A stretch of DNA of 64,000 nt from Roseateles sp. (GTDB lineage Bacteria; Pseudomonadota; Gammaproteobacteria; Burkholderiales; Burkholderiaceae_C), in assembly GCA_052436255.1 (NCBI GenBank), contig JBQVNP010000011.1:3572-67571 (forward strand), in the 5' to 3' direction. The number at the start of each line of letters is the position of its first letter. The stretch's first letter is position 1. Under the pieces are notes generated by a model that saw nothing but the letters and a program-made list of their open reading frames with translations, was not told the origin of the DNA and ran no database searches. Made by a program: the position numbers and the translations under genes. Of this stretch, positions 1,904 through 53,051 are shown piece by piece.

Positions 1904-2077
1904 ATGGAAGAGAAGCCGAAGCGCCCTCGCGGCAGACCGCCCGCTCCGCCAGAGTCCGCCCTGACCGCGTTCCTTGGCATGCGCGTCAGCCCGGCCTTGA
2001 AAGACAAGGTGGACCACCTGGGCCACGCCTGGGCGCGGGCCGTGCTGGAGAAGGCCAAGCCGCCGAAGGACGGATAG
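1904..2077 (+). CDS. 57-aa putative DNA-binding micro-protein (GRP/AT-hook-like plus RHH-like)
   Basis: Hand translation MEEKPKRPRGRPPAPPESALTAFLGMRVSPALKDKVDHLGHAWARAVLEKAKPPKDG; similar to the ORF at 35372-35548. Confidence 0.7.
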   Translation: MEEKPKRPRGRPPAPPESALTAFLGMRVSPALKDKVDHLGHAWARAVLEKAKPPKDG

Positions 2078-2078
2078 C

Positions 2079-2906
2079 TCACGGCGCCGTACCTTGTACC
2101 GGCACATGGGAAACAGGCCGCGCGCCGTTGAACACGACCGCCTCGCGGTTGCTGACCGAGCCGAAGGGCGGCATGTCCAGCACGGCGACGACCGACCGCT
2201 CAACGACAAGCGCAGGGTTCGTGCGCGCGAAGTGCTTCGGCGGCAGCGCGTCTATCTCTTCGGCCGTGAATGGCGCCGTGGTTTGCCGGCGCTGGACATA
2301 GGCGCCACGCTTGAACAGCGCAGGGTAGTCGTTCCAGTTGACGCCCTTGGCGTGCAGCATGTCGTGCTTGTCCCGGCCGTTGCGCCCCTGCAGCTCCCGG
2401 TGGCTGTAATAGGCCGAGGCCGCCATCGTGATGCTGTTCTTGGTGGCGTCCCACTCGCGCCACAGGAAGCAGTTCGCCCCCTCGGTGCGGTTGGGCACAG
2501 ACCAGACGCGGGCGTCGAAGGTCGGCAGTCGGTCAGCGTACTGAGGCATGCGCTCCAGCACCAGCCGATAGAAGATCAGCGTCGCCTGGGCAGCGAGCTG
2601 GCTGGTCATCTTCGCCACGCGGCCGTCGAACCAGACCTGGCTCTGCATCGTCTCGCTGTGCCAGGCCAGCGTGATTTCGTCGCTCTGCGTGTAGCCCAGG
2701 CAGGCGCCGGTGTGGCGCACCAGCTCGACGGTCGTGTCCAGCATGCAGGCCGAGAACGTTGGATCAAACGGGCGATCCATGCCACGCGTGAACGAGTGGA
2801 AAGCCCGGCCGTCGATGCGCGCCAGGATGGGCAGCAGTGGCATGAGGCGCCGGCCGGCTTCCGCCGACTCGTACAGCTTCATGCGGTCGCCAAGATCGTC
2901 ATTCAT
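2079..2906 (-). CDS. Thg1-like protein (tRNA-His guanylyltransferase family, 3'-5' polymerase)
   Basis: MNDDLGDRMKLYE...ARIDGRAFHSFT...GYTQSDEI...FDARV...WRE.DA.KNSI; catalytic Asp and Asp-Glu motifs of the Thg1 family. Confidence 0.9.
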   Translation of the reverse strand: MNDDLGDRMKLYESAEAGRRLMPLLPILARIDGRAFHSFTRGMDRPFDPTFSACMLDTTVELVRHTGACLGYTQSDEITLAWHSETMQSQVWFDGRVAKMTSQLAAQATLIFYRLVLERMPQYADRLPTFDARVWSVPNRTEGANCFLWREWDATKNSITMAASAYYSHRELQGRNGRDKHDMLHAKGVNWNDYPALFKRGAYVQRRQTTAPFTAEEIDALPPKHFARTNPALVVERSVVAVLDMPPFGSVSNREAVVFNGARPVSHVPVQGTAP

Positions 2907-4345
2907 GGGTGATCCTTTACTGCGGGGGCTTGGACGGCAGCCTCGAATCGGCCCCATGCCTTGTCCACCATCGGCTGGAGCAGCGACGACATCCGCTCCC
3001 GCACCTCGGCCATCGCGTCGGCATGGCCGTAGTTGCTCGTCCACTCGTGGCGGTCGGTGCCCAGCACCTCGTCAAGCAGGGCGTCGATGTAGTCGCTGGC
3101 GGCGTCACGCTCTTCCAGGACCTGCATCAGCGCCTTGTCGTCAGGTGCAGGCGCGGGGGCTTGGGCGGCGGCCTCGGCCACGCGGGCGGCGAAGTAGCGG
3201 TCGAGCCACTTCTTGAGCCGATCCATCATGCGCTGCGGGCCGAAGGCTACGTCTTCCGGGTAGCCGGGCTCCCACTCCAGGCGCAGCGGCGTCCAGTCAG
3301 CCGGGATCGCGGTCTTGCCGTCCTCCAGCAGCTTGTAGCCGTCAGGCGCGGCGGCTTGGGAGTCGCCGCTGTTTCTGACCTTGAGCACGTCTTCGAGGGA
3401 TTCGGCCAGCGAGAACAGCGGCGCCACGAAGCCGGTTCCGTACTCGCAGATTTCGTTCACGAAAGCCGCGCGCTCGTCGGGCGTCAGGCCGCGCCATTCG
3501 GGGGCCGTCCCCTTGGGCTGGGGATGGGCAGCGTCGGCAGGTTGGCGAACCGATGGCAGCGGGCCGCAGCCAGGCAGCGTCAGGCCGCCCGGCAGGACAT
3601 GCACCTCGGTGCGGATGCGTTCGGCGATTTCCTCGCAGGCGAGCTGGTAGCCCGCATGCAGCGGCGTCGGCATGTCCACGTCAGCGCCGCCGATAGGCAG
3701 CGCGGCGACATCGGCAACGATCCGCAGCGCGCGGTGCACCTCCAGCGCCGAGGCGAACTCGATGGCCTGCTCATCGGTCAGCGAATCCCCCTCTGCTGGG
3801 GCTCGCATCTCTTCGTCCAGCCGGGTCAGGTCGGCCAGGCCGGCGCGGCGGGGATCGGGCTGGGCGGCAAGGGCGGCGCGGACCTTCCCCAAGTCGTCGC
3901 TGTGGGCGTAGATCGTGGCCGTCGAGTCGCTGTCGAGCTGGATGTCGGCGACCATCATGCCGGCGCCCCATTCGACAAAGCGCGGGGCGGCAGTCCAGGT
4001 CAGCTCTGCACCCTCAGGGGCTTGGATCGCGCGCAACCGGGCAATCTCGGCCAGGACCGCCTTCGGCGACATGACCTGCAGGCCCAGGGCGTCGGTGACG
4101 TTGGAGCCGAACGTCACCCACTCGCTGACGCAGCCTTTCGACGACGCCAAGTCGCGAGACAGCGCACCGGCGCGGCCCTCGGTCTCGAACAGTTGACGGC
4201 CCGTGATTTGCAGCTGCTCGGCAGCTTCATCCAGCAGCTGGGCGATGTCGTCGGCCGTCTCGGCTCGGCACAGGTCGGCCTCATCGCGCAGGCGCTGGAC
4301 CAGCGACTGTGCAGGCTGGGGGGATTGGATTTGTTCGGTGGTCAT
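2903..4345 (-). CDS. Mosaic phage hypothetical protein (480 aa)
   Basis: Long ORF, ATGA-coupled to the Thg1-like gene. Confidence 0.75.
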   Translation of the reverse strand: MTTEQIQSPQPAQSLVQRLRDEADLCRAETADDIAQLLDEAAEQLQITGRQLFETEGRAGALSRDLASSKGCVSEWVTFGSNVTDALGLQVMSPKAVLAEIARLRAIQAPEGAELTWTAAPRFVEWGAGMMVADIQLDSDSTATIYAHSDDLGKVRAALAAQPDPRRAGLADLTRLDEEMRAPAEGDSLTDEQAIEFASALEVHRALRIVADVAALPIGGADVDMPTPLHAGYQLACEEIAERIRTEVHVLPGGLTLPGCGPLPSVRQPADAAHPQPKGTAPEWRGLTPDERAAFVNEICEYGTGFVAPLFSLAESLEDVLKVRNSGDSQAAAPDGYKLLEDGKTAIPADWTPLRLEWEPGYPEDVAFGPQRMMDRLKKWLDRYFAARVAEAAAQAPAPAPDDKALMQVLEERDAASDYIDALLDEVLGTDRHEWTSNYGHADAMAEVRERMSSLLQPMVDKAWGRFEAAVQAPAVKDHP

Positions 4346-4350
4346 CGCAG

Positions 4351-5037
4351 TCAGTCTTCCTTCGCCTCGCAGGCGCTCTCAACCTCGTCCTCATCCATGT
4401 CCACATCCAGGGTGGTTCGGCCGCAGTACATCGCCAGCAGCAAGCCGTCGAAGTCGCCCACGACGGCCGGAGTGGACTTCGGGGTGATGTCGTGGCCGCT
4501 CAGCTTGAGGGCGTAGATCGCCCCGTCGCCCGTGAAAGCGAGGCGTATGTCGGCGTGGTAGGTGTCCCGCGTGTTGGGATCCGAGTCCAGATACAAATGC
4601 CCGCCGCCGCTGCTGTACTGGGACGGCTCGAAGCGTGCGTAGAACCGCTCGTGGTCGTCTTTGTGGAGGCCGCCTCGGGCCTGCTCCAGCAGCTCCGACA
4701 GCTTGATGCGAGCAGGCACCTCCGGCATCACCGACTGTGCGACCCGCTCCAGCGCGGTCTTCAGGGCCGCCGCGTTGGCGCCATCGACAGCATTGCTGAC
4801 CGCGATGTTCAGCATGTGCTGGAACTTCGCCACGTCGTGCACGCGCAGGCCGTGCGGCAGCGCTTCGGAGAGCTGCTGCGTCAGAAGCTTGCGGAACTCG
4901 CTGCGGTAGCCGGTGGCCTCCTCCAGGGAGTCCTTTAGGGCCTTGGTGATGGCGCCATCCAGCAGCGGCTGGATGCGCTCGGGCGCCACGGCCGCAGCCA
5001 CGATGCCCTCGATGTCGATCTGGAAGTTGAAGTTCAT
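4351..5037 (-). CDS. Phage hypothetical protein
   Basis: MNFNFQIDIEGIV...; AAGGA RBS upstream. Confidence 0.75.
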   Translation of the reverse strand: MNFNFQIDIEGIVAAAVAPERIQPLLDGAITKALKDSLEEATGYRSEFRKLLTQQLSEALPHGLRVHDVAKFQHMLNIAVSNAVDGANAAALKTALERVAQSVMPEVPARIKLSELLEQARGGLHKDDHERFYARFEPSQYSSGGGHLYLDSDPNTRDTYHADIRLAFTGDGAIYALKLSGHDITPKSTPAVVGDFDGLLLAMYCGRTTLDVDMDEDEVESACEAKED

Positions 5038-5071
5038 GTCAGTTTCCTTGTGCTCGCGGAGGGGATGGGTT

Positions 5072-5863
5072 TCAGGCCTCTGCCGGCTCTGCATCGGCGT
5101 TGACGCGGCTGATCGCGGTGCCGGCCAGGTCGTCAGCCTTCGCCTCGTTGTCCTTCTGAGCGGCTGCTTCAGCAGCGGCGCGTTCGCGCTCCACGGCGCC
5201 ACGTAGCATGAGCGGAACCGGCGCTGATGCCATGCTCGTGTCCTGATCGCGCAGCGACATCGTCACGGCCATCAACTCCGACTCCGCGGCGAAGCGAGTG
5301 ATGAGCATCCCGTCCGGCGTGGTCCAGTGGAAGAGCGGCGCCGTCGTCCGGCTGCTCAGGTCCGCGCCCAGCTTGTCCAGCACGCCCAGGTACTTCGGGT
5401 TGAACGGGCCTTGGCAGCCGGGGCGCAACTCGCCGAGGGCCGGTGCCAGCACGCGCAGCACCTTCGGGTATTCGACCGCTTCGATGGTCGGAGGGCCTGG
5501 CTGTACATGCATCTCTTCCAGCAGCGCCGACAGCACGCGGATGCGGCCGTCCTGAATGACGACGCGGGAGTCCGGGCGGTTGCGGCAGTCGCGCGCAGAC
5601 GCCGCGAGCTTGGAACTGCAGGTCAGCGTCTGCGGGCCCGGCGTGCGGCCGTTGGCATCAAACGCCACGCCGAGCTGATGGCCGTTCGTGGCGACGATCA
5701 GAACGCCAGAACCACACGGGTGCGGCATCAAGTGCACGCCGTTGAGATACCAGCGGATGTCCTGCTTGGCACGGAAGACGGCGACGGCACCGAACAGGCG
5801 CGCGTCCACCGCCGTGGTGATGTCTTCGGGCAAGTCGATGGCGGGAGTGGTGGTCTTGGTCAT
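5072..5863 (-). CDS. DNA polymerase III beta-clamp-like protein
   Basis: AKQDIRWYLNGVHL...LIVATNGHQL resembles DnaN 'D.R.YLNGV...VATDGHRL'. Confidence 0.65.
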   Translation of the reverse strand: MTKTTTPAIDLPEDITTAVDARLFGAVAVFRAKQDIRWYLNGVHLMPHPCGSGVLIVATNGHQLGVAFDANGRTPGPQTLTCSSKLAASARDCRNRPDSRVVIQDGRIRVLSALLEEMHVQPGPPTIEAVEYPKVLRVLAPALGELRPGCQGPFNPKYLGVLDKLGADLSSRTTAPLFHWTTPDGMLITRFAAESELMAVTMSLRDQDTSMASAPVPLMLRGAVERERAAAEAAAQKDNEAKADDLAGTAISRVNADAEPAEA

Positions 5864-6001
5864 TGCGTTTGCTTCGCGGGTTGAGGTTGCTGCTCGCGCT
5901 TGGCGAGGTCTGCGGCCAGGGCATCCCAGGGGATGGCCGGCGTTTCTTGATCGGGTTTTGATTGCCAGGGCCGGGCCTGGGCGCGCTGGCGAAGGCGACG
6001 G

Positions 6002-6385
6002 CTAGCCATGGACGGGCTCCGTCTTCGCCTCTGCCGCCTTGCTGCGGACCGCCTTGGCGTACTCACGAGCGTTGGCCCCGATGTTGTTGAGGCTGCTGCG
6101 CCGGCCGTTGGTCAGCGTCACGGAATCGAAGGCGCGGGCGAGTGCGTCGGCGCGGGTTTCAAGGCAGTGCTCAACCGTGCCCTCGAAGGACCGGCCGAAG
6201 CGCTCGGTGAACCATGCGTCATGGCCGCCGAAGATGAAAACCGGAACGCCGTTGGCACGGTCAGCGCCCAGCGGATCGGCGCCGTACTTGCCGGCCCCCA
6301 GCACGCAGACCATGACTGCCGCGATCTCAAGGTCATCGGCCTCGAAGTGGTAGGCGTCGCTCGGGTTGATGAGGTTGAACTTCAT
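6002..6385 (-). CDS. Phage hypothetical protein
   Basis: 127-aa ORF in operon. Confidence 0.7.
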   Translation of the reverse strand: MKFNLINPSDAYHFEADDLEIAAVMVCVLGAGKYGADPLGADRANGVPVFIFGGHDAWFTERFGRSFEGTVEHCLETRADALARAFDSVTLTNGRRSSLNNIGANAREYAKAVRSKAAEAKTEPVHG

Positions 6386-6633
6386 GGCGCGTTTCCTTCC
6401 ACCGGCTTCGCAGCGTTGAGCAGGCCCTGACGCTCCAGTAACGCCATCAGGTAGGCGATGTGGTCGCGACCCTTCACGACGAAGATGGCGCGCTCGGTGT
6501 CCGCGGCGCTGCTGCCGTCCATGAAGACGCTCACGGCGTCGGTGTCCTTCTCGGCGGCGTCCAGCAGGTTGACCACGCGGGCGCGGTTGTTGTGGATGGA
6601 TGTGGCCTTGTTGCGGGCGGTGTCGGTGCTCAT
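6382..6633 (-). CDS. Phage hypothetical protein
   Basis: 83-aa ORF, ATGA coupling. Confidence 0.65.
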   Translation of the reverse strand: MSTDTARNKATSIHNNRARVVNLLDAAEKDTDAVSVFMDGSSAADTERAIFVVKGRDHIAYLMALLERQGLLNAAKPVEGNAP

Positions 6634-6634
6634 G

Positions 6635-8482
6635 TCAGGCTGCCTGCTGCAGCTCTTCAGCCTTCGCCGCGAAGTGCTTGCTGGCCTTGATGCAGAGGGC
6701 GCGGGCGTCCGACTGGCGGTAGAACTTCATGCCGCGCTCGACGCGGAACTGGAAGCCCTCCTGGGCGATGCCTTCGGCGGTGATCGTGTAGGGCGCAATC
6801 AGCGCCTGGATCTCGCCGAGGCGGACGGTGTAGGGCTCGGCCATGGTGGTCGCGACAGTGCGGCGGAAGGCGCGCACCTCGGGGGCTGGTGCCACAGAAG
6901 GGGCCGCGTCGGCGGCTTGCCCAGCGCCCATAGAGCCGACGCTCGGGCTGGTGATGACAGGAGCATCCCGGTCGGTAGCGTCGGGCGTGCTTGCCTCTGC
7001 CTTCAAAACCTGTTGGGAGTCCTGCGCTGCGATGTTCTTGGCGGCCAGGTCGGCGGAGGCTTGGCGCTCCAGGCGGGCGGCCTCGTCGGCGCGGGCCTGT
7101 GCCTCGACCGCCTCGCGCTGGCGCTGCGCTGCGGCCTCGCGCTCCAGCCGCGCCACTTCCTCGGCCCGGATGCGCTCGCGCTCTGCCTCGATGCGCTGCC
7201 GTGCGACGGCCCGGCGGCTGGTCACGAGGTTGGCGAAGTCCTCGGCCGGCTTGGTGCACACCGCTGGGAAGTCGGGAAAGAGCCCGGCCGCGTCAGCATC
7301 GTTCATCGCCTTGCGGTTGGCGTCGATCAGGTCGGCGACGCGGTTCAGCTCGATCTTGACCCGCGCCAGTTCGGTGCTGATCGCGTCTTCCATGCTGGCC
7401 AGGCTGCGCTTGTTCTTGATGGCACCCGGGAAGTCAGACGGAACGGAGAAGGACACGCCGACGCGGGCATGCAAGGCGGCGTAATGCTGCTGGGCCGCCT
7501 TCTGGCCGTCCGACACGATCTCGGCCTTGCGGCGCTCCTTCTCGCTGGCCAGCAGCTTCTCTGCCATCAGACGGTTTGTGCGGACCAGCGCGGCCAGCAT
7601 GTCCTTCGTCTTCTTGGCGGTGTCGACGGTCTGGATCTGCGCCAGCATCTGCGTCTCGGCGGCGTCCAGCGCGGCCTCGGCGCCCTTCATGGCCTTGATC
7701 TGCAGGTCCAGGTCAGCGAAGTCCTGATCGGTCTTCGGCTCACGGATAAGGCGGTGCTCCAGGAAGTCGCGCAGCGCGGTCTCGAACGCGCCGAAGTTCG
7801 CCGTGATGGCGATCTCGCCGGTGACCTTGACCAGCACGGCGGGCAGGGCCTGCACCGGCTCGGCGACCACGGCAGGCACGACCTCGGCGGGCTGGTAGGC
7901 GGCTACGTCGGCCTCGAACTGGGCCCAGCCGGCCACGATGCGGGCGCGCAGCTCCAGGTTCGGCGTGTACCAGCAGTGGCGCTCTTCGACGAGGTTGCCC
8001 TCGTCGTCGAACTGGGCCGCGACGAACAGTGTCCTCTCGCACGTATCGTTCACGGCGTGCTGCTGTTCCATCTGGACCTGATAGTCAAGCGGCAGGTCAG
8101 CGCCGGTGCAGCCTGGCACCATCGCTTCACGCAGGCGCTTGTTCAGGCGCTTGCACTCGAAGCTCTGGTCATAGAGGAACGTCAGGCCGTCGAAGCTGGC
8201 CGACAACGGGCCGTTGGTCCCAACGACGGGCGACAGGTCCTCGCCGATGATCTCTTCGGCGATGGGACGGGCCAGCGCTTCGGTACGGTGGCCGTCGTCA
8301 AACAGCCGCTGTGTCTGCGCGTCGACCTCCTCGGTGAGGCCGGTCGCGACTTCCTTGAGCAGCTGCGCGCGGGTCTTGTACGGCGAGCAGCCCATCATGG
8401 CCGGCGCGTCGCTGGCGTTGAAGTGGTTCAAGCGGTGGGCATGCCATTCGGGCGTGCCCTGGGTCAGCTGGACGATGTTCAT
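6635..8482 (-). CDS. YqaJ-like/lambda-exonuclease family recombinase with long coiled-coil C-terminus
   Basis: MNIVQLTQGTPEWHAHR...FNASDAPAMMG...GH..E...ASFDG...ECK...Y.VQ..QQ. Confidence 0.9.
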   Translation of the reverse strand: MNIVQLTQGTPEWHAHRLNHFNASDAPAMMGCSPYKTRAQLLKEVATGLTEEVDAQTQRLFDDGHRTEALARPIAEEIIGEDLSPVVGTNGPLSASFDGLTFLYDQSFECKRLNKRLREAMVPGCTGADLPLDYQVQMEQQHAVNDTCERTLFVAAQFDDEGNLVEERHCWYTPNLELRARIVAGWAQFEADVAAYQPAEVVPAVVAEPVQALPAVLVKVTGEIAITANFGAFETALRDFLEHRLIREPKTDQDFADLDLQIKAMKGAEAALDAAETQMLAQIQTVDTAKKTKDMLAALVRTNRLMAEKLLASEKERRKAEIVSDGQKAAQQHYAALHARVGVSFSVPSDFPGAIKNKRSLASMEDAISTELARVKIELNRVADLIDANRKAMNDADAAGLFPDFPAVCTKPAEDFANLVTSRRAVARQRIEAERERIRAEEVARLEREAAAQRQREAVEAQARADEAARLERQASADLAAKNIAAQDSQQVLKAEASTPDATDRDAPVITSPSVGSMGAGQAADAAPSVAPAPEVRAFRRTVATTMAEPYTVRLGEIQALIAPYTITAEGIAQEGFQFRVERGMKFYRQSDARALCIKASKHFAAKAEELQQAA

Positions 8483-9336
8483 TCGGCGGCCTCGGTGGCT
8501 TCGGTGGCGGGGGACTCCTCGCGCTTGAGCGCGTTGATCTGGGCTGTCTGCTCGGGCGTCAGGGCGCCGCGCGCCAGCGCCCAGCCCAGGATGTCGTTCG
8601 TGGTCTTGATGCCCTCGGCGACAGCGCGGGTCCAGCGGGGCATTTGCTCGGCGAACTTGTCGTCGGGCCAGGTCGCGGGCGGCGGGGGCGGGGGTGGCGA
8701 TCCAACAACCTCTGCCGCTCCCATGTGCTTCGGCTCGGCCTGCGCGTCCAGCGCCTTCCCTTCCATCTCTTCGGCCGTGGGCGTAGAGCCGACCTCGGGG
8801 AACGCCTTGCGCAGGGCCTGGGCTTCGGCGCACTTGGCCAGCTGGCCGCGCGGGCGCTTCGACCACATGGCATTGGGCGCGATGCTCTTTTCCTTGCCGC
8901 CCTTGATCGCGTAGTTCTCCGTCCAGTACTCGACGGCCGTGAACGTGGCGACCTGGCCGCTGGGCAGCAGGCGCTTGACGGTGACCTTGCACCAGTCGGG
9001 ATACGTGACGGTCTGGCCGCCGATCTCTTCCGTCAGCATCGGCCCGAACTCGGGCTCGCTGATGCCGGCCATCTGGTTGGAGCGGCTGGCCTGCGTGCGG
9101 TAGAGGCCGACGCCGGGCATGACCACATCACGCATCTGCCCGGCCTTGCTGTCCCACATGGGGACGATGTGGACCGGCTTCTGCATGGGGTCCAGGCCGG
9201 CCGCCTTGCAGTAGCCTAGGACCATGCGGATGCTGCCGTGGTTCGCACCGGGGTAGAGGCTGCTGCTGAGCACGTCCAGCAGCTCGGGCTCGGACAGCGC
9301 GAGCGCGCCGCCTTCTTGTCGGGTGATTGCGTTCAT
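8479..9336 (-). CDS. bet: Phage recombination protein Bet (single-strand annealing)
   Basis: CKAAGLDPMQKPVHIVPMWD...PNAMWSKRPRGQLAKCAEAQALRKAFPE; adjacent to the exonuclease. Confidence 0.9.
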   Translation of the reverse strand: MNAITRQEGGALALSEPELLDVLSSSLYPGANHGSIRMVLGYCKAAGLDPMQKPVHIVPMWDSKAGQMRDVVMPGVGLYRTQASRSNQMAGISEPEFGPMLTEEIGGQTVTYPDWCKVTVKRLLPSGQVATFTAVEYWTENYAIKGGKEKSIAPNAMWSKRPRGQLAKCAEAQALRKAFPEVGSTPTAEEMEGKALDAQAEPKHMGAAEVVGSPPPPPPPATWPDDKFAEQMPRWTRAVAEGIKTTNDILGWALARGALTPEQTAQINALKREESPATEATEAAE

Positions 9337-10588: not shown

Positions 10589-10632
10589 ATATTAGGCGAC
10601 GCCTTATCAATGCGTCAATAGGCGTAGCCTTA
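10589..10632 (-). promoter_or_regulatory. pL promoter with operators OL1/OL2
   Basis: Minus-strand TTGACG (10613-10618) and TAATAT (10589-10594); 15-bp palindromes TTAGGCGACGCCTTA (10592-10606) and ATAGGCGTAGCCTTA (10618-10632). Confidence 0.8.
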
Positions 10633-14484: not shown

Positions 14485-14670
14485 ATGCCTGAACTGATTG
14501 TCTCAAGAAACACCGTCGCCACCCTCTACGCAGACGCCAGCAAGGAGATGACCCACGACGACGCAGTCCTTCACGTCGCCGGCATCACCGGCCAGACGCC
14601 GGAAACAGTGGAAGGCGTCATCTGGGCGCGCGAATCGAATCACACGGCGGCGATGGAGTGCGGAGCGTGA
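14485..14670 (+). CDS. Small hypothetical protein
   Basis: 61-aa ORF with RBS, coupled to next gene. Confidence 0.55.
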   Translation: MPELIVSRNTVATLYADASKEMTHDDAVLHVAGITGQTPETVEGVIWARESNHTAAMECGA

Positions 14671-17204
14671 GCGACTACACGGCGTTCCTCCGCCAGAAGA
14701 TCAAGCTCGCCCAGTTCAAGGGCTTCGAGGTCGACCCGGCCGAGCTGAACCCCAAGCTGAAGCCGCACACGGCCGACATCGTGCGCTGGGCGCTGTTGGG
14801 CGGCCAACGCGCCATCTTCGCCAGCTTCGGCCTGCACAAGACCGTGACGGCGCTGGAGATCATGCGGCTGATCGGCAAGCGCCGCGCCGGCGTACGCGCC
14901 ATCGTCTGCCCGCTGGGCGTGCGCCGCGAGTTCATCGACCAGGCCGCGCAGCACTTCACCGGCGAGTTCGCGCTGGACGTGCGCTTCGTGAACCGCGACA
15001 GCCAGATAGACGACGACCGCACGATCTACCTGACGAACTACGAAGCGGTGCGCGAGGGCAACGTCAACCCGTCGCGCTGGCTGGCCAGCAACCTGGACGA
15101 AGCGAGCGTCTTGCGCAGCTACGGCAGCAAGACCTATCAGGAGTTCCTGCCCGCCTTCCAGCCGGTCGAGTTCAAGTTCGTGGCCACGGCCACGCCGAGC
15201 CCGAACCGCTTCAAGGAGCTGATTCACTACGCGGGTTACCTCGGCGTGATGGACACGGGCCAGGCGCTGACGCGGTTCTTCCAGCGCGACAGCGAGAAGG
15301 CCGGCAACCTGACCCTCTATCCGCACAAGGAGCAGGAGTTCTGGTTGTGGGTCGCGAGCTGGGCCGTCTTCATCCAGCGCCCGAGCGACCTGGGCCACAG
15401 CGATGACGGATATGTCCTGCCCGAGCTCGATGTCCGGTACCACGAGGTGCCGAGCGACTACAGCAAGGCCGGCGAGGAGCGCGACGGCCAGGCTCTGATG
15501 TTCACAGACCCGGCCCTAGGCCTGAGCGCCGCGGCGGCCGAGAAGCGCGACAGCATGCCGGCGCGCGTCGCCAAGGTGGCCGAGATCCTGGCCGCTGATC
15601 CTGCTGACCACTTCGTTGTGTGGCACGACCTGGAGGCCGAGCGCCACGCCCTGCAGGCGGCTATCCCCGAGGCCGTCAGCGTGTGGGGCAACCAGGACCT
15701 GACCGAGCGCGAGGACCGTATTGCCGACTTCGGCGACGGCAAGTTCCGCGTCCTGTCCACCAAGCCGGTCATCGCCGGCAGCGGCTGCAACTTCCAGCGC
15801 CATTGCCACCGCGAGGTCTTCGCCGGCATCGGCTTCAAGTTCAACGACTTCATTCAGTCCGTGCACCGGGTCCAGCGCTTCGGCCAGGCCCACCCGGTAC
15901 GCATCGACATCGTCCACACCGAGGCAGAGCGCGAAGTCCTGCGCGAGCTGCTGGCGAAGTGGGCTCAACACGACGAGACCCAGACGACCATGACCGAGAT
16001 CATCCGCAAGTTCGGGCTGAGCCAGCTGGCCATGCAGGAGACGCTGGCGCGCAGCCTGGGCGTCGAGCGCGTCGTCGTCAGCGGCGACCGCTTCACCGTG
16101 GCGAACAACGACTGCGTCGAGGAGGCCAAGGCCCAGCCCGACAACTCGGTCGACCTGATCGTCACGAGCATCCCGTTCGCCAACCATTACGAGTACAGCC
16201 CCAGCTACAACGACTTCGGCCACACCGAGGACAACGCGCAGTTCTGGGCGCAGATGGACTTCCTCACGCCCGAGCTGCTGCGCATCCTGAAGCCCGGCCG
16301 CATCGCTGCGATCCACGTCAAGGACCGCATCGACTTCGGCAACGTGACCGGCAAGGGCCTGCCCACCGTCAGCCCGTTTCACGCCGAGACGCTGGCGCAC
16401 TACGCCGGCATTCGCTCGATGGGCTTGCCCGGCCATGGCTTCGATTACCTCGGGATGATCACCGTCGTCACGGACGTGGTGCGCGAGAACAACCAGACCT
16501 ACCGCCTCGGCTACACGGAGATGCGCAAGGACGGCTCCAAGATGGGCTGCGGCTCGCCTGAGTACATCCTGCTGTTCCACAAGCCGCAGACCGACCGCTC
16601 CAAGGGCTACGCCGACAGCCGAATCAGCAAGCGCATCGAGGACTACAGCCTCGCACGCTGGCAGGTCGATGCGCATGCCTACTGGCGTTCCAGCGGCAAC
16701 CGCCTGCTGACCGTCGACGAGCTGGCCAGCCTCGGCCCGGACAAGCTGGCGAAGCTGTTCACGGACTACAGCCTGACCAAGGTCTACGACTTCGAGGCCC
16801 ATGTCCAGATCGGGCACGCGCTGGAGCTGCGCGGCGCGCTGCCGTCGACCTTCATGAGCCTGGCCCCGGGGTCGTGGCACCCGGACGTGTGGCATGACGT
16901 GACGCGCATGCTGACGCTCAACAGTGAGCAGAGCCGGCGCGCAGTCGAGAAGCACGTCTGCCCGCTCCAGTTCGACATCGTCGACCGGCTCATCGAGCGC
17001 TACAGCAACAAGGGCGAGCGCGTCTATGACCCATTCTGCGGCCTTGGCACCGTGCCCTACCGGGCAATCCTGAAGGGCCGCACCGGCGGCGGCAGCGAGC
17101 TCAACCCGAACTACTTCACCGACCAGGTGCATTACCTGCGTGCGGCCGAGCGCGAGATCTCGATGCCCAGCCTGTTCGACGCTTTCGAGCTGGAGGCGGC
17201 CTGA
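14667..17204 (+). CDS. SF2/SNF2-like helicase fused to an amino-(N4/N6) DNA methyltransferase
   Basis: GLHKT, LDEAS, ATATPSPN, QSVHRVQRFGQ, then TSIPF and DPFCGLGT methylase motifs; GTG start. Confidence 0.88.
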   Translation: MSDYTAFLRQKIKLAQFKGFEVDPAELNPKLKPHTADIVRWALLGGQRAIFASFGLHKTVTALEIMRLIGKRRAGVRAIVCPLGVRREFIDQAAQHFTGEFALDVRFVNRDSQIDDDRTIYLTNYEAVREGNVNPSRWLASNLDEASVLRSYGSKTYQEFLPAFQPVEFKFVATATPSPNRFKELIHYAGYLGVMDTGQALTRFFQRDSEKAGNLTLYPHKEQEFWLWVASWAVFIQRPSDLGHSDDGYVLPELDVRYHEVPSDYSKAGEERDGQALMFTDPALGLSAAAAEKRDSMPARVAKVAEILAADPADHFVVWHDLEAERHALQAAIPEAVSVWGNQDLTEREDRIADFGDGKFRVLSTKPVIAGSGCNFQRHCHREVFAGIGFKFNDFIQSVHRVQRFGQAHPVRIDIVHTEAEREVLRELLAKWAQHDETQTTMTEIIRKFGLSQLAMQETLARSLGVERVVVSGDRFTVANNDCVEEAKAQPDNSVDLIVTSIPFANHYEYSPSYNDFGHTEDNAQFWAQMDFLTPELLRILKPGRIAAIHVKDRIDFGNVTGKGLPTVSPFHAETLAHYAGIRSMGLPGHGFDYLGMITVVTDVVRENNQTYRLGYTEMRKDGSKMGCGSPEYILLFHKPQTDRSKGYADSRISKRIEDYSLARWQVDAHAYWRSSGNRLLTVDELASLGPDKLAKLFTDYSLTKVYDFEAHVQIGHALELRGALPSTFMSLAPGSWHPDVWHDVTRMLTLNSEQSRRAVEKHVCPLQFDIVDRLIERYSNKGERVYDPFCGLGTVPYRAILKGRTGGGSELNPNYFTDQVHYLRAAEREISMPSLFDAFELEAA

Positions 17205-24434: not shown

Positions 24435-25075
24435 AGAGTCCACCCAGAGCGTTCGCGCCGCTGGGTTTGAAGTCCTCGGCTCACTGCTGAGGCTGCCCGG
24501 GTTTATCGCCGGGCGTTGGAACTGAGCCGCTGCTGACCTGCGGGCGCGGCCAGGATGATCGGCAGGACCGGACACCTAGGGATCAAGGCGGGCGCTCACC
24601 GGGCGCGCCTGAACGCCTCCCGCCATACCGTGCCAAGTAGCCTCAGAGCGTCATAGCTTGGGCCAAGCCCTGCCGAAATGGCCCCGCACAGAGTAAGCGG
24701 GTGGCAGCCGGGGAAGACCGGCAAGAACAACTGCGGTGTAGCGCATCGGTAGCGCGACGGGCTCATAACCCGAAGGTAGGTGGTTCGATTCCACCCTCCG
24801 CAACCAGGGCAGACTCGGAATCTGGTGGAAAGGGCAGGGGGCGGGAAACCGTGTGACCCCATGCGCGCCGAGTGGAGAAGAACCCAGATTGACGGCCGGG
24901 AAAGACCGGCGCCCCCATGCATGGCGCTTGACTGGTGGGGGTTCCCGCCGGTGGCCAACAGGCGCCATGCATGGGGGTGAACTCCCTGCACCGCTGATGG
25001 TGAAACATGAGACCGGCCCCGATTGCTGTGCGTCCAAGGGTCGGCACTGAACAGCACCGCATAGCAACACCCTCT
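24435..25075 (+). ncRNA. Candidate large structured ncRNA region embedding a tRNA
   Basis: No convincing ORF; many long stems (24477-24483/24523-24529, 24912-24927/24962-24977, 25023-25032/25058-25067), GAAA loops, a repeated motif. Confidence 0.5.
24732..24806 (+). tRNA. tRNA-Met(CAT), initiator-like, phage-encoded
   Basis: Cloverleaf; GGGCTCATAACCC anticodon arm with three G-C pairs; GGTGG-TTCGATT-CCACC T arm; encoded CCA. Confidence 0.9.
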
Positions 25076-50865: not shown

Positions 50866-50917
50866 CACCTCCCTTACACGGAGATTGTCGGCGGTTCGAG
50901 CCCGTCAGCGCCCACCA
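50866..50917 (+). pseudogene. attR: 3' fragment of tRNA-Val(TAC)
   Basis: CTCC-CTTACAC-GGAG anticodon arm, GGCGG-TTCGAGC-CCGTC T arm, AGCGCCC-A-CCA end; no 5' acceptor strand or D arm. Confidence 0.88.
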
Positions 50918-51034: not shown

Positions 51035-52948
51035 ATGTTTGAATTCGTCCGCCAACACAACCGCCTGTTCCAGTTCATCCTGCTGATCCTGATCCTGCCG
51101 TCCTTCGCCTTCGTCGGCATGCAGGGCTATACCAGCATGATGGACGGCGCCAACGCCAGCGTGGCCACCGTCGATGGCCGCAAGATCACGCAAGCCGAAT
51201 GGGACTTTGCCCAGCGCGAGCAGGCTGATCGCATCCGCCGCCAGAGCCCCGGCGTCGACGCCAAGCTGCTGGACACGCCCGAAGTCAAGCGCCAGGCCCT
51301 CGAAGGCCTCGTCAACGAGCGCACGCTCAAGGCGGCCGCGGAAGACCAGCACTTCACGCCCAGCGCCGAGGCCGTCAACGCCAGGTTCTGGAACGATCCT
51401 CAGTTCGCCTTCCTGCGCAACCCAGACGGCACGGTCAACAAGGCCATGCTGGCCGCGCAGGGCATGACCCCCTCGATCTTTCTCGAGCGCCTGCGCCAGG
51501 ACTACGCGATCCGCCAGGTCACGGCGCCCATCGAAACTTCGGCCACTGTCGGCACTGCTGCGCCGAAGCTGGCCTTTGATGCGCTGCTCCAGCAGCGTGA
51601 GGTGCAATTGCAGCGTTTCGACGTCGCGGGCTTTGCTGCCAAGCTCAACCCGAGCGACGCCGAGATCGAAGCCTTCTACAAGGAGCCGGCCAACGCTGCC
51701 AAGTTGCAACTGCCCGAAACGGCTCAGATCCAGTACGTCGTGCTGGATTTGGAGGCCCTGAAGCAGGACGTCAAGTTCACCGAAGACGACCTGCTGACCT
51801 ACTACAAGGAAAACGCGGCTCGCTACGGCGTGCCCGAAGAGCGCCGCGCCAGCCACATCCTGATCAAGGCGGAGCGCGGCGCGTCGGCCGACGAGCGTGC
51901 CAAAGCCAAGACCAGGGCCGAAGACATCCTGGCGCAGGTGCGCAAGAACCCGGCCGAGTTCGCTGCCTTGGCAAAGAAGAACTCCCAGGACGAAGGCTCT
52001 GCGGCCAATGGCGGCGACCTCGACTTCTTCAGCCGCGGCGCCATGGTCAAGGAGTTCGATGCCGCCGTTTACGCCATGAAGCAGGGCGAAATCAGCAACC
52101 TCGTCGAGACTGATTTCGGCTACCACATCATCCAGCTGACCGGCACCCGCGGTGGCGAGAAAAAGCCCTTCGAAGCCGTGCGCGCCGAAATCGAGGGCGA
52201 AGTGCGCAAGCAGCTCGCTCAGCGTCGTTATGCGGAAGCCGCCGAGCAGTTCGGCAATCTCGTCTACGAGCAGGCCGACAGCCTGCAACCCGCTGTCGAT
52301 AAGCTCAAGCTGCAGATCCAGACCGCCACCGTCCAACGCCAGCCTCAAGCCGGCGCGACGGGCGTGCTGGCTTCACCCAAGCTGCTTGACGCAGTCTTCG
52401 GCGCGGAGGCGCTGCGCAACAAACGCAATACCGAAGCCGTCGAAACCGGTGCCAGCCAGATGGTGTCGGCCCGGGTTGTCCAGCACAGCCCGGCCCGCGT
52501 GCCGCCGCTCGCCGACGTGAAGGACAAGGTGCGGCAGCAACTCGTCCAGAAGCTGGCGTCGGAGCAGGCCAAGAAGGCCGGCGAGGCGCGATTGGCCGCG
52601 CTGAAGGCCAACCCCGCCGACACCACCGGACTGGATGCGGCCGTCACGGTGTCGCGTGCCAAGCCGCAAGCCTTGAGCCGTGAGCAGCTCGAGGCGGTGC
52701 TGGGTGCCGATGCCTCCAAGCTGCCCGCCGTGGTGGGCTTTGCGGCGGATGAGGGAGGCTATGTTGTCGCGCGCATCAACCAACTGCAGCCGCGCGATGC
52801 CGCTGTCATCGACGACACGCGAGCCGCGCAGCAATACGCGGCCGCCTGGGCCAGGGCCGAAGGACAAGCCTTCATGGCAGCACTGAAGTCTCGATACAAG
52901 GCCGTCATCAATGTCGCCGCGCCGGCGTCCGCAGCCAGCGCGCCCTGA
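51035..52948 (+). CDS. ppiD: Periplasmic chaperone/peptidyl-prolyl isomerase PpiD
   Basis: N-terminal TM, SurA-like N domain, parvulin motifs RRASHILI and SQDEGSAANGGDLDFF...TDFGYHIIQL. Confidence 0.92.
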   Translation: MFEFVRQHNRLFQFILLILILPSFAFVGMQGYTSMMDGANASVATVDGRKITQAEWDFAQREQADRIRRQSPGVDAKLLDTPEVKRQALEGLVNERTLKAAAEDQHFTPSAEAVNARFWNDPQFAFLRNPDGTVNKAMLAAQGMTPSIFLERLRQDYAIRQVTAPIETSATVGTAAPKLAFDALLQQREVQLQRFDVAGFAAKLNPSDAEIEAFYKEPANAAKLQLPETAQIQYVVLDLEALKQDVKFTEDDLLTYYKENAARYGVPEERRASHILIKAERGASADERAKAKTRAEDILAQVRKNPAEFAALAKKNSQDEGSAANGGDLDFFSRGAMVKEFDAAVYAMKQGEISNLVETDFGYHIIQLTGTRGGEKKPFEAVRAEIEGEVRKQLAQRRYAEAAEQFGNLVYEQADSLQPAVDKLKLQIQTATVQRQPQAGATGVLASPKLLDAVFGAEALRNKRNTEAVETGASQMVSARVVQHSPARVPPLADVKDKVRQQLVQKLASEQAKKAGEARLAALKANPADTTGLDAAVTVSRAKPQALSREQLEAVLGADASKLPAVVGFAADEGGYVVARINQLQPRDAAVIDDTRAAQQYAAAWARAEGQAFMAALKSRYKAVINVAAPASAASAP

Positions 52949-52974: not shown

Positions 52975-53051
52975 GGTGGCTGTAGCTCAGTTGGTAGAGT
53001 CCAGGATTGTGATTCCTGTTGTCGCGGGTTCGAGTCCCGTCAGCCACCCCA
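52975..53051 (+). tRNA. tRNA-His(GTG) with encoded G-1
   Basis: G-GTGGCTG...CCAGG-ATTGTGATT-CCTG...CAGCCAC-C-CCA. Confidence 0.97.

Follow-up and report, generated by a model that had tools for sequence, protein, structure and literature searches.

We find that a clade of Thg1-like proteins (TLPs), one of which is encoded by a prophage of a Roseateles genome, is a solitary, mobile and selected cargo gene of small temperate phages, a setting that, as far as we could find, is absent both from collections of isolate phages and from the literature. The TLP family, its presence in phages and the idea that it repairs tRNA have already been published; the carrier described here is smaller and temperate. 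On balance, we favour the view that the prophage protein works on its own as a templated repair enzyme for tRNA 5' ends and is produced early in the lytic cycle.

The TLP gene is a minus-strand frame of 275 codons (ATG at 2906-2904, stop at 2081-2079), the product of which matches the Thg1 domain of Pfam (PF04446) with 92.1 bits over profile positions 2-130 of 130, the curated cut-off being 29.2 bits. The Thg1 C-terminal domain (PF14413) is matched weakly (21.3 bits, cut-off 26.3), and the Foldseek alignment of the structural model with the Bacillus thuringiensis TLP (BtTLP) reaches about 260 columns. The profile of PHROG 4717, 'tRNA-His guanylyltransferase', is recovered with an E-value of 8.9e-84, residues 1-224 aligning with profile positions 1-212 of 250, and a search of NCBIfam with the protein gave no match. 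Among solved structures, BtTLP (4KGK/4KGM) is the best match by sequence (E 5e-42, residues 3-204), with the eukaryotic Thg1 proteins of Candida, yeast and human being recovered more weakly (E 3e-12 to 6e-7). The protein displays the motifs A-R-I-D32-G and Q-S-D76-E77-I, and its carboxylates D32 and D76/E77 line up with these motifs of BtTLP and of Candida Thg1. We take D32, D76 and E77 to be the counterparts of D29, D76 and E77 of human THG1 (structure of human Thg1, Hyde et al. 2010). Across 48 aligned homologues sharing 36-85% identity, R30, D32, G33, S75, D76 and E77 are invariant along with 18 further positions, and the catalytic site apparently is intact. At the site where Candida Thg1 has 'DCHINNLYNTT', the prophage protein has 'DATKNSIT' and BtTLP has DASKNSI; as this TLP-type segment replaces the HINNLYN-type one, the protein belongs with the bacterial-type TLPs rather than with the eukaryotic Thg1 enzymes.

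The same 48-homologue alignment yielded an AlphaFold2 model with a mean pLDDT of 92.7 and a pTM of 0.87. When it is searched against the PDB with Foldseek, BtTLP (4KGM/4KGK) comes out on top with a TM-score of 0.88, and the best 32 matches are all Thg1 or TLP chains, followed by Cas10 and nucleotide cyclases at E >0.01. The evidence from Pfam, PHROG, alignment and fold thus agrees with the preliminary description of this DNA, which had recognized a full-length Thg1-family protein with the RIDG and QSDEI carboxylates. We also considered a signalling-nucleotide synthase of the mCpol/Cas10 type, and reject this reading because the cyclases and Cas10 match only in that last range, the strong matches of sequence and fold all being to Thg1 or TLP.

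The window, i.e., the whole stretch of 64,000 nucleotides that was analysed, corresponds to contig C11:3572-67571 of a 5.7-Mb assembly in 285 contigs. To its left, the contig carries pgsA, an HU gene, tRNA-Val(TAC), a 375-aa tyrosine integrase and a small excisionase-like ORF. The 52-bp repeat found both at tRNA-Val and within the window (Table 1) delimits a prophage of about 52.9 kb with its right end at 50917. The gene order runs from int and xis through the leftward chain (TLP to RecT-like) to a region of repressor/Cro-like and Ant-like genes, continues with a helicase, a replication protein, NinB, NinG, tRNA-Met and an HNH gene, and ends with the small and large terminase, portal, major head protein, tape measure, endolysin and spanin; as judged from this gene set, the element is apparently a complete lambda-like siphovirus prophage in tRNA-Val. 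We compared about 40 prophage proteins, all but a few small ORFs, with PHROGs, and 10 of the 40 with Pfam as well, and found among them no RNA ligase, Pnkp, RtcB or CCA-adding enzyme, nor any other partner gene of the phage tRNA-repair kit in which a TLP joins Pnkp, RNA ligase, RlaP and a CCA-adding enzyme. The 848-aa protein encoded at 14658-17204 is matched over its full length by the phage DNA helicase family phrog_16 (E 4e-115), its C-terminal half also matching several DNA methyltransferase families; the replication module may include it as a fusion of helicase and methyltransferase. Outside the prophage, between attR and the host tRNA-His, lies a 637-aa ORF (51035-52948; phrog_16409, E 1e-30), which may belong to the host or be left over from a different element.

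Table 1. Features of the prophage and its surroundings, in window coordinates except where a contig or locus is named (locus L128 is the C11:1549-3182 region)
Feature	Position	Strand	Remarks
attL copy, 3' end of tRNA-Val(TAC)	contig C11:1573-1624		left of the window, adjoins the integrase
Tyrosine integrase	L128:1797-2924	+	next to attL
Excisionase-like ORF	L128:2928-3182	-	near attL
Convergent 57-aa ORF	1904..2077	+	runs to within 1 nt of the TLP stop; closes the leftward unit
Thg1-like protein (TLP) gene	2079..2906	-	275 aa, bacterial type; catalytic D32, D76, E77
480-aa gene, function unassigned	2903..4345	-	directly upstream of the TLP gene; stop overlaps the TLP start
Rest of the early-left chain	4351..9336	-	phrog_2600, phrog_3007, phrog_10705, 83-aa ORF, exonuclease, RecT-like; same direction as the TLP gene
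RecE/YqaJ-like exonuclease	6635-about 8482	-	early-left chain
RecT-like annealing protein	8479-9336	-	early-left chain
Sigma-70-like promoter match	10589..10618	-	head of the leftward chain; candidate early-left promoter, consensus match only
tRNA-Met(CAU)	24732..24806	+	only prophage tRNA; initiator-like; 22 kb from the TLP gene
attR	50866..50917	+	exact 52-bp copy of the tRNA-Val(TAC) 3' part
Host tRNA-His(GUG)	52975..53051	+	encoded G-1 (52975), C73, CCA; body 52976-53051; outside the prophage

The start codon of the TLP is secure, in that its ATG overlaps the stop of the preceding gene (ATGA, 2906-2903), follows an AAGGA Shine-Dalgarno-like sequence and encodes the same Met at which the homologues start. 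The ATGA overlap suggests that translation of the TLP is coupled to that of the 480-aa gene, for which no homologue was found among 300 genomes of the host family; using it as a probe for relatives of the prophage with an empty site in place of the TLP, we found none in these 300 genomes. With the other genes of the chain running in the same direction, the convergent 57-aa ORF closing it, and no strong terminator found in the leftward stretch from about 10.6 kb to 2079, the TLP gene is the last of an early-left (pL-like) transcription unit. The expression 'early-left operon', under which it had been introduced in the preliminary description, therefore remains a fair one. Besides the candidate promoter at the head of the chain, a second promoter-like site, likewise a consensus match only, is present on the minus strand at 11272-11245. 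The open frame of the exonuclease (6635-8992) extends about 170 codons upstream of the region with homology, overlapping the RecT-like gene, and its true start is probably near 8482 (MNIVQL...).

Relatives of this TLP number in the thousands in a collection of 5.8 billion proteins, the best 120 of them being 72-98% identical to it. In a tree of 113 sequences from fetched loci, it falls within a 17-member clade with 100% SH-aLRT support, as a sister to a prophage copy from Piscinibacter sakaiensis (L002). The members of this clade, which also include the IMG/VR sequences L005, L006, L039 and L054 and those of the assemblies L134-L136, are 69-83% identical, and their nearest neighbours in the tree are two viral contigs of 254-262 kb and Gemmatales chromosomes. 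We observed clade members in a prophage with a P22-type portal, where the TLP gene is beside RusA; in a 53.9-kb contig with terminase and lysis genes; in a 51.9-kb contig with RecT, YqaJ, NinB and DnaB; in a 47.4-kb contig with ERF and NinB; in a mobile-looking region of a betaproteobacterial MAG; and in five IMG/VR viral contigs, one of which is a complete 51.2-kb genome with terminal repeats. Two further copies stand alone in chromosomes, one adjoining tsaD in an alphaproteobacterium and the other in Amphibiibacter. As in the present prophage, early or nin-type genes surround the TLP gene in four other phage contexts, the contigs in question being phage-like and of 47-57 kb.

The genes that travel with the TLP are not conserved. 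When all ORFs within 5 kb on either side were compared all-against-all across the 17 close loci, no gene family apart from the TLP, with its shadow ORFs, was present in three or more of them, and tblastn of 43 proteins of the window against about 125 TLP loci recovered, besides the TLP itself, at most one weakly shared gene, in three loci. The phage backbones of the clade members are unrelated, and the position of the gene varies, from the left operon here to the right operon or nin region elsewhere. Pairwise dN/dS is about 0.11-0.24 between the gene in the window and the 13 clade members with unsaturated dS (gene GC 57-68%), and GC content spans 49-68% across the TLP genes compared; together these values indicate that the genes have long resided in various hosts and been maintained there by purifying selection. 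The occurrence of the clade in unrelated small temperate-phage contigs makes the TLP a recurrent cargo gene, and not a one-off.

Among 50,697 records of isolate phages, 164 encode a relative of the TLP with 28-55% identity, annotated as 'tRNA-His guanylyltransferase' or similarly, and no copy exceeds 55% protein identity to it. The roughly 85 of these 164 records that were listed all have genomes of 97.9-550 kb, and include Pseudomonas phage 201phi2-1 (gp319), CcrColossus-like phages of Caulobacter, Burkholderia phage BcepSauron, jumbo phages of Erwinia and Serratia, Bacillus myoviruses of 150-165 kb (Bcp1-like), Mycobacterium phages of 108-111 kb and the Lak megaphages. At the DNA level, the only hits of a search for isolate phages bearing the clade itself were in jumbo phages, and these were partial, with about 70% identity. 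The TLP is also rare among relatives of the host (3 of 301 species genomes of the family and 2 of 400 genomes of the class), and the host assembly has no second copy. The phage family was noted in 2010 (PMC2904730), and a study of 2021 described the jumbo-phage version as a sporadic function restoring tRNA 5' nucleotides (PMC7824862); the literature searched ties phage TLPs to jumbo or large phages only, and a review of TLPs from 2019 leaves phages unmentioned. The earlier interpretation is weakened in that the gene belongs to an already named phage family (PHROG 4717) for which a 5'-repair role has been discussed (PMC2904730, PMC7824862). The accompanying assertion that such proteins are not standard in small temperate phages holds for the listed isolates, all of which are at least 97.9 kb, but has to be qualified in view of the recurrence of the gene in small lambda- and P22-like contigs.

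Contig size alone misleads counts of small phages with a TLP, in that contigs of 35-60 kb can be fragments of very large phages. Such pieces in IMG/VR include L030, L016, L036, L083 and L076 (records G306, G313, G308, G311 and G326). Above-threshold tRNAs are present in 15 of 29 TLP-bearing viral contigs and in none of the small close-clade contigs; the tRNA-rich ones are mostly pieces of larger phages, several being 8-24% complete (CheckV) with 7-19 tRNAs, and 5-42 tRNAs are found across the large-phage fragments with a TLP. We accordingly reject an association between TLP and tRNA genes among '50-kb' IMG/VR contigs, which is produced by fragments of much larger phages.

We propose that the TLP would act as a palm-domain enzyme of the two-metal kind, extending recessed RNA 5' ends by 3'-5' addition of nucleotides, with the opposite strand, typically the 3' half of a tRNA acceptor stem, serving as the template. 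As the last gene of the early-left unit, it is expected to be expressed at induction or infection and not in the lysogen; it would then most probably restore host, and perhaps phage, tRNAs that lack 5' nucleotides, and the repaired tRNAs would keep translation capacity high during lytic growth. Such a biochemical activity is likely. Given 5'-truncated tRNAs of various kinds, BtTLP prefers to restore the lost +1 nucleotide as directed by the template, with a 5-160-fold preference for truncated tRNAs that extends to non-His tRNAs, and template-dependent 3'-5' addition to 5'-truncated tRNA has been shown for BtTLP and MaTLP only (PMC3061083). We chose general tRNA 5'-end repair because it is the sole activity shown for BtTLP, the closest characterised relative. 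We infer that tRNA is the substrate in vivo and that the phage benefits; the gene context is uninformative as to the substrate, there being neither a partner RNA-repair gene among the roughly 40 proteins scanned nor a conserved neighbour. The literature searched offers no source of 5'-truncated tRNAs in infected bacteria.

A more specific role in maturing the tRNA-Met of the prophage, as had been suggested earlier, in proof-reading it, or in adding G-1 to tRNA-His, appears to us quite improbable. The prophage does carry one tRNA, and the TLP genes of large phages co-occur with the big tRNA sets described above. However, tRNA-Met belongs to a different operon, far from the TLP gene, and its structure shows no defect of the relevant kind: it shares its GGG/CCC anticodon stem with the host initiator of contig C96, C11 pairs with G24 and U1 with A72 (Rfam, 63 bits), and its sole acceptor-stem mismatch, U6/U67, is outside positions 1-3, such that nothing points to a need for 5' editing. 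Co-occurrence of the TLP with phage tRNAs, which had been proposed as a check, likewise shows no linkage in the close clade, 10 of 12 loci having no tRNA gene within 10 kb and the complete 51-kb phage genome of the clade having no tRNA above threshold. As for tRNA-His, its only copy in the assembly lies 2 kb beyond attR; the G at 52975, immediately upstream of the tRNA body, bears out the earlier statement that G-1 is genome-encoded, the tRNA being a host gene and not one of the phage, and addition of G-1 is therefore not needed. Alternatively, the TLP might act on an RNA other than tRNA, such as a phage transcript, a small RNA or a primer, extending or activating its 5' end, for instance by templated fill-in of a recessed end or by 5'-adenylylation. 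TLPs have a broader RNA recognition than Thg1 and do without the tRNA-His anticodon (PMC6471195), and the lack of linkage to phage tRNA genes and the DNA recombination genes around the TLP in this prophage could be read in the same direction. Against this, no conserved flanking RNA or neighbour is found in the 17 close loci, Rfam detects two tRNAs only in the window, and the biochemically defined substrates of TLPs in the literature searched are all tRNAs or tRNA-like acceptor stems (PMC6471195, PMC3061083), which leaves a non-tRNA substrate as a minor and unlikely rival to tRNA repair.

The more interesting special case of general tRNA 5'-end repair is a dedicated counter-defence, wherein the TLP would reverse the trimming of tRNA 5' ends, or the removal of G-1 from tRNA-His, by an immune or toxin nuclease. 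We consider this rather doubtful, and equally so the outcome it entails, an escape of the phage from abortive infection. The gene behaves as mobile, solitary and strongly conserved cargo in the early accessory regions of unrelated temperate phages; tRNA is often an immune target, to which phages respond with tRNA genes and ligases; and C73 of the host tRNA-His would allow templated re-addition of G-1 (PMC3061083). Yet no defence system in the literature searched cuts or trims the 5' end of tRNA, the immune tRNases of recent studies instead cutting the anticodon loop or stem, the D-loop, the 3' acceptor strand or the CCA tail, and a TLP rebuilds only what the 3' acceptor strand templates. A still narrower version, that the small-phage clade is a dedicated counter to an undescribed bacterial nuclease or toxin removing tRNA 5'-terminal nucleotides, is a long shot in our estimation. 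The contrast between the U1:A72 pair of the phage tRNA-Met and the C1xA72 mismatch of the host initiator tRNA fits such a counter-measure, and one may speculate that a templated TLP could faithfully rebuild the end of the phage tRNA but not that of the host. A very improbable reading is that the TLP gene is passenger DNA with no role in the phage, an unused gene of bacterial origin whose capture was recent. Its sporadic distribution in the host family and class and the lone chromosomal members of the clade would be in line with capture, but the low dN/dS, the intact catalytic site across the clade, the adjustment of GC to the hosts (49 to 68%), the place of the gene inside an operon with translational coupling, and its repeated retention by unrelated phages all speak against it.

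The protein has close counterparts in systems already known. BtTLP (PDB 4KGK/4KGM; PMC3061083, PMC3701042) has the same fold and belongs to the same family, with about 40% identity over about 200 aa, the same catalytic carboxylates and the same 'D-A-[ST]-K-N-S-I' segment, and is also a stand-alone gene; it differs in being chromosomal and not part of a temperate prophage, in being about 30 aa shorter at the C-terminus, and in having Lys in the 'K/R-P-F-D' segment where the prophage protein has Arg45. Of the 48 diverse sequences aligned, large-phage and chromosomal homologues among them, 35 have R here and 11 have K, and an Arg in place of the 'activation lysine' is therefore no hallmark of the temperate-phage clade. 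The phages of PHROG 4717 encode the same protein family, the isolate copies sharing 36-55% identity with the prophage protein, and the role proposed for it in the literature is the same, restoration of tRNA 5' nucleotides (PMC7824862). Most of the listed isolate carriers of that family are lytic, and large tRNA sets or RNA-repair kits are frequent among them, whereas the present element is a temperate lambda-like prophage of 52.9 kb in which a single tRNA and no further RNA-repair gene were found. The sole TLP role demonstrated in vivo is that of Dictyostelium TLP3 in mitochondrial tRNA 5'-editing, in which one to three nucleotides at the start of the acceptor stem are refilled from the template in many tRNAs; this process requires encoded mismatches at positions 1-3 and a 5' nuclease (PMC5041481, PMC6471195), and the phage tRNA and the host tRNAs examined have no mismatch of this kind. 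The earlier interpretation stands in regard to the intact TLP, the early-left operon and the encoded G-1, and is unsupported in regard to tRNA maturation.

TLP phages of laboratory hosts exist already, and nothing here indicates the source of the damage to be repaired, which limits the value of the system. Within that limit, a small and apparently inducible prophage with a solitary, coupled early TLP is a simpler genetic setting than a jumbo phage, and could provide a clean genetic test of the role of the TLP in living cells. Beyond the end of the leftward unit, the AT-rich spacer upstream of the 57-aa ORF contains two 17-nt direct repeats, GCGCATTTRATGTTTAA in the minus-strand reading, at 1875-1891 and 1840-1856, i.e., 35 nt apart. 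This spacer is common to the 57-aa ORF and a divergent 127-aa gene (1464-1847), and the three together look like a small autonomous regulatory cassette.
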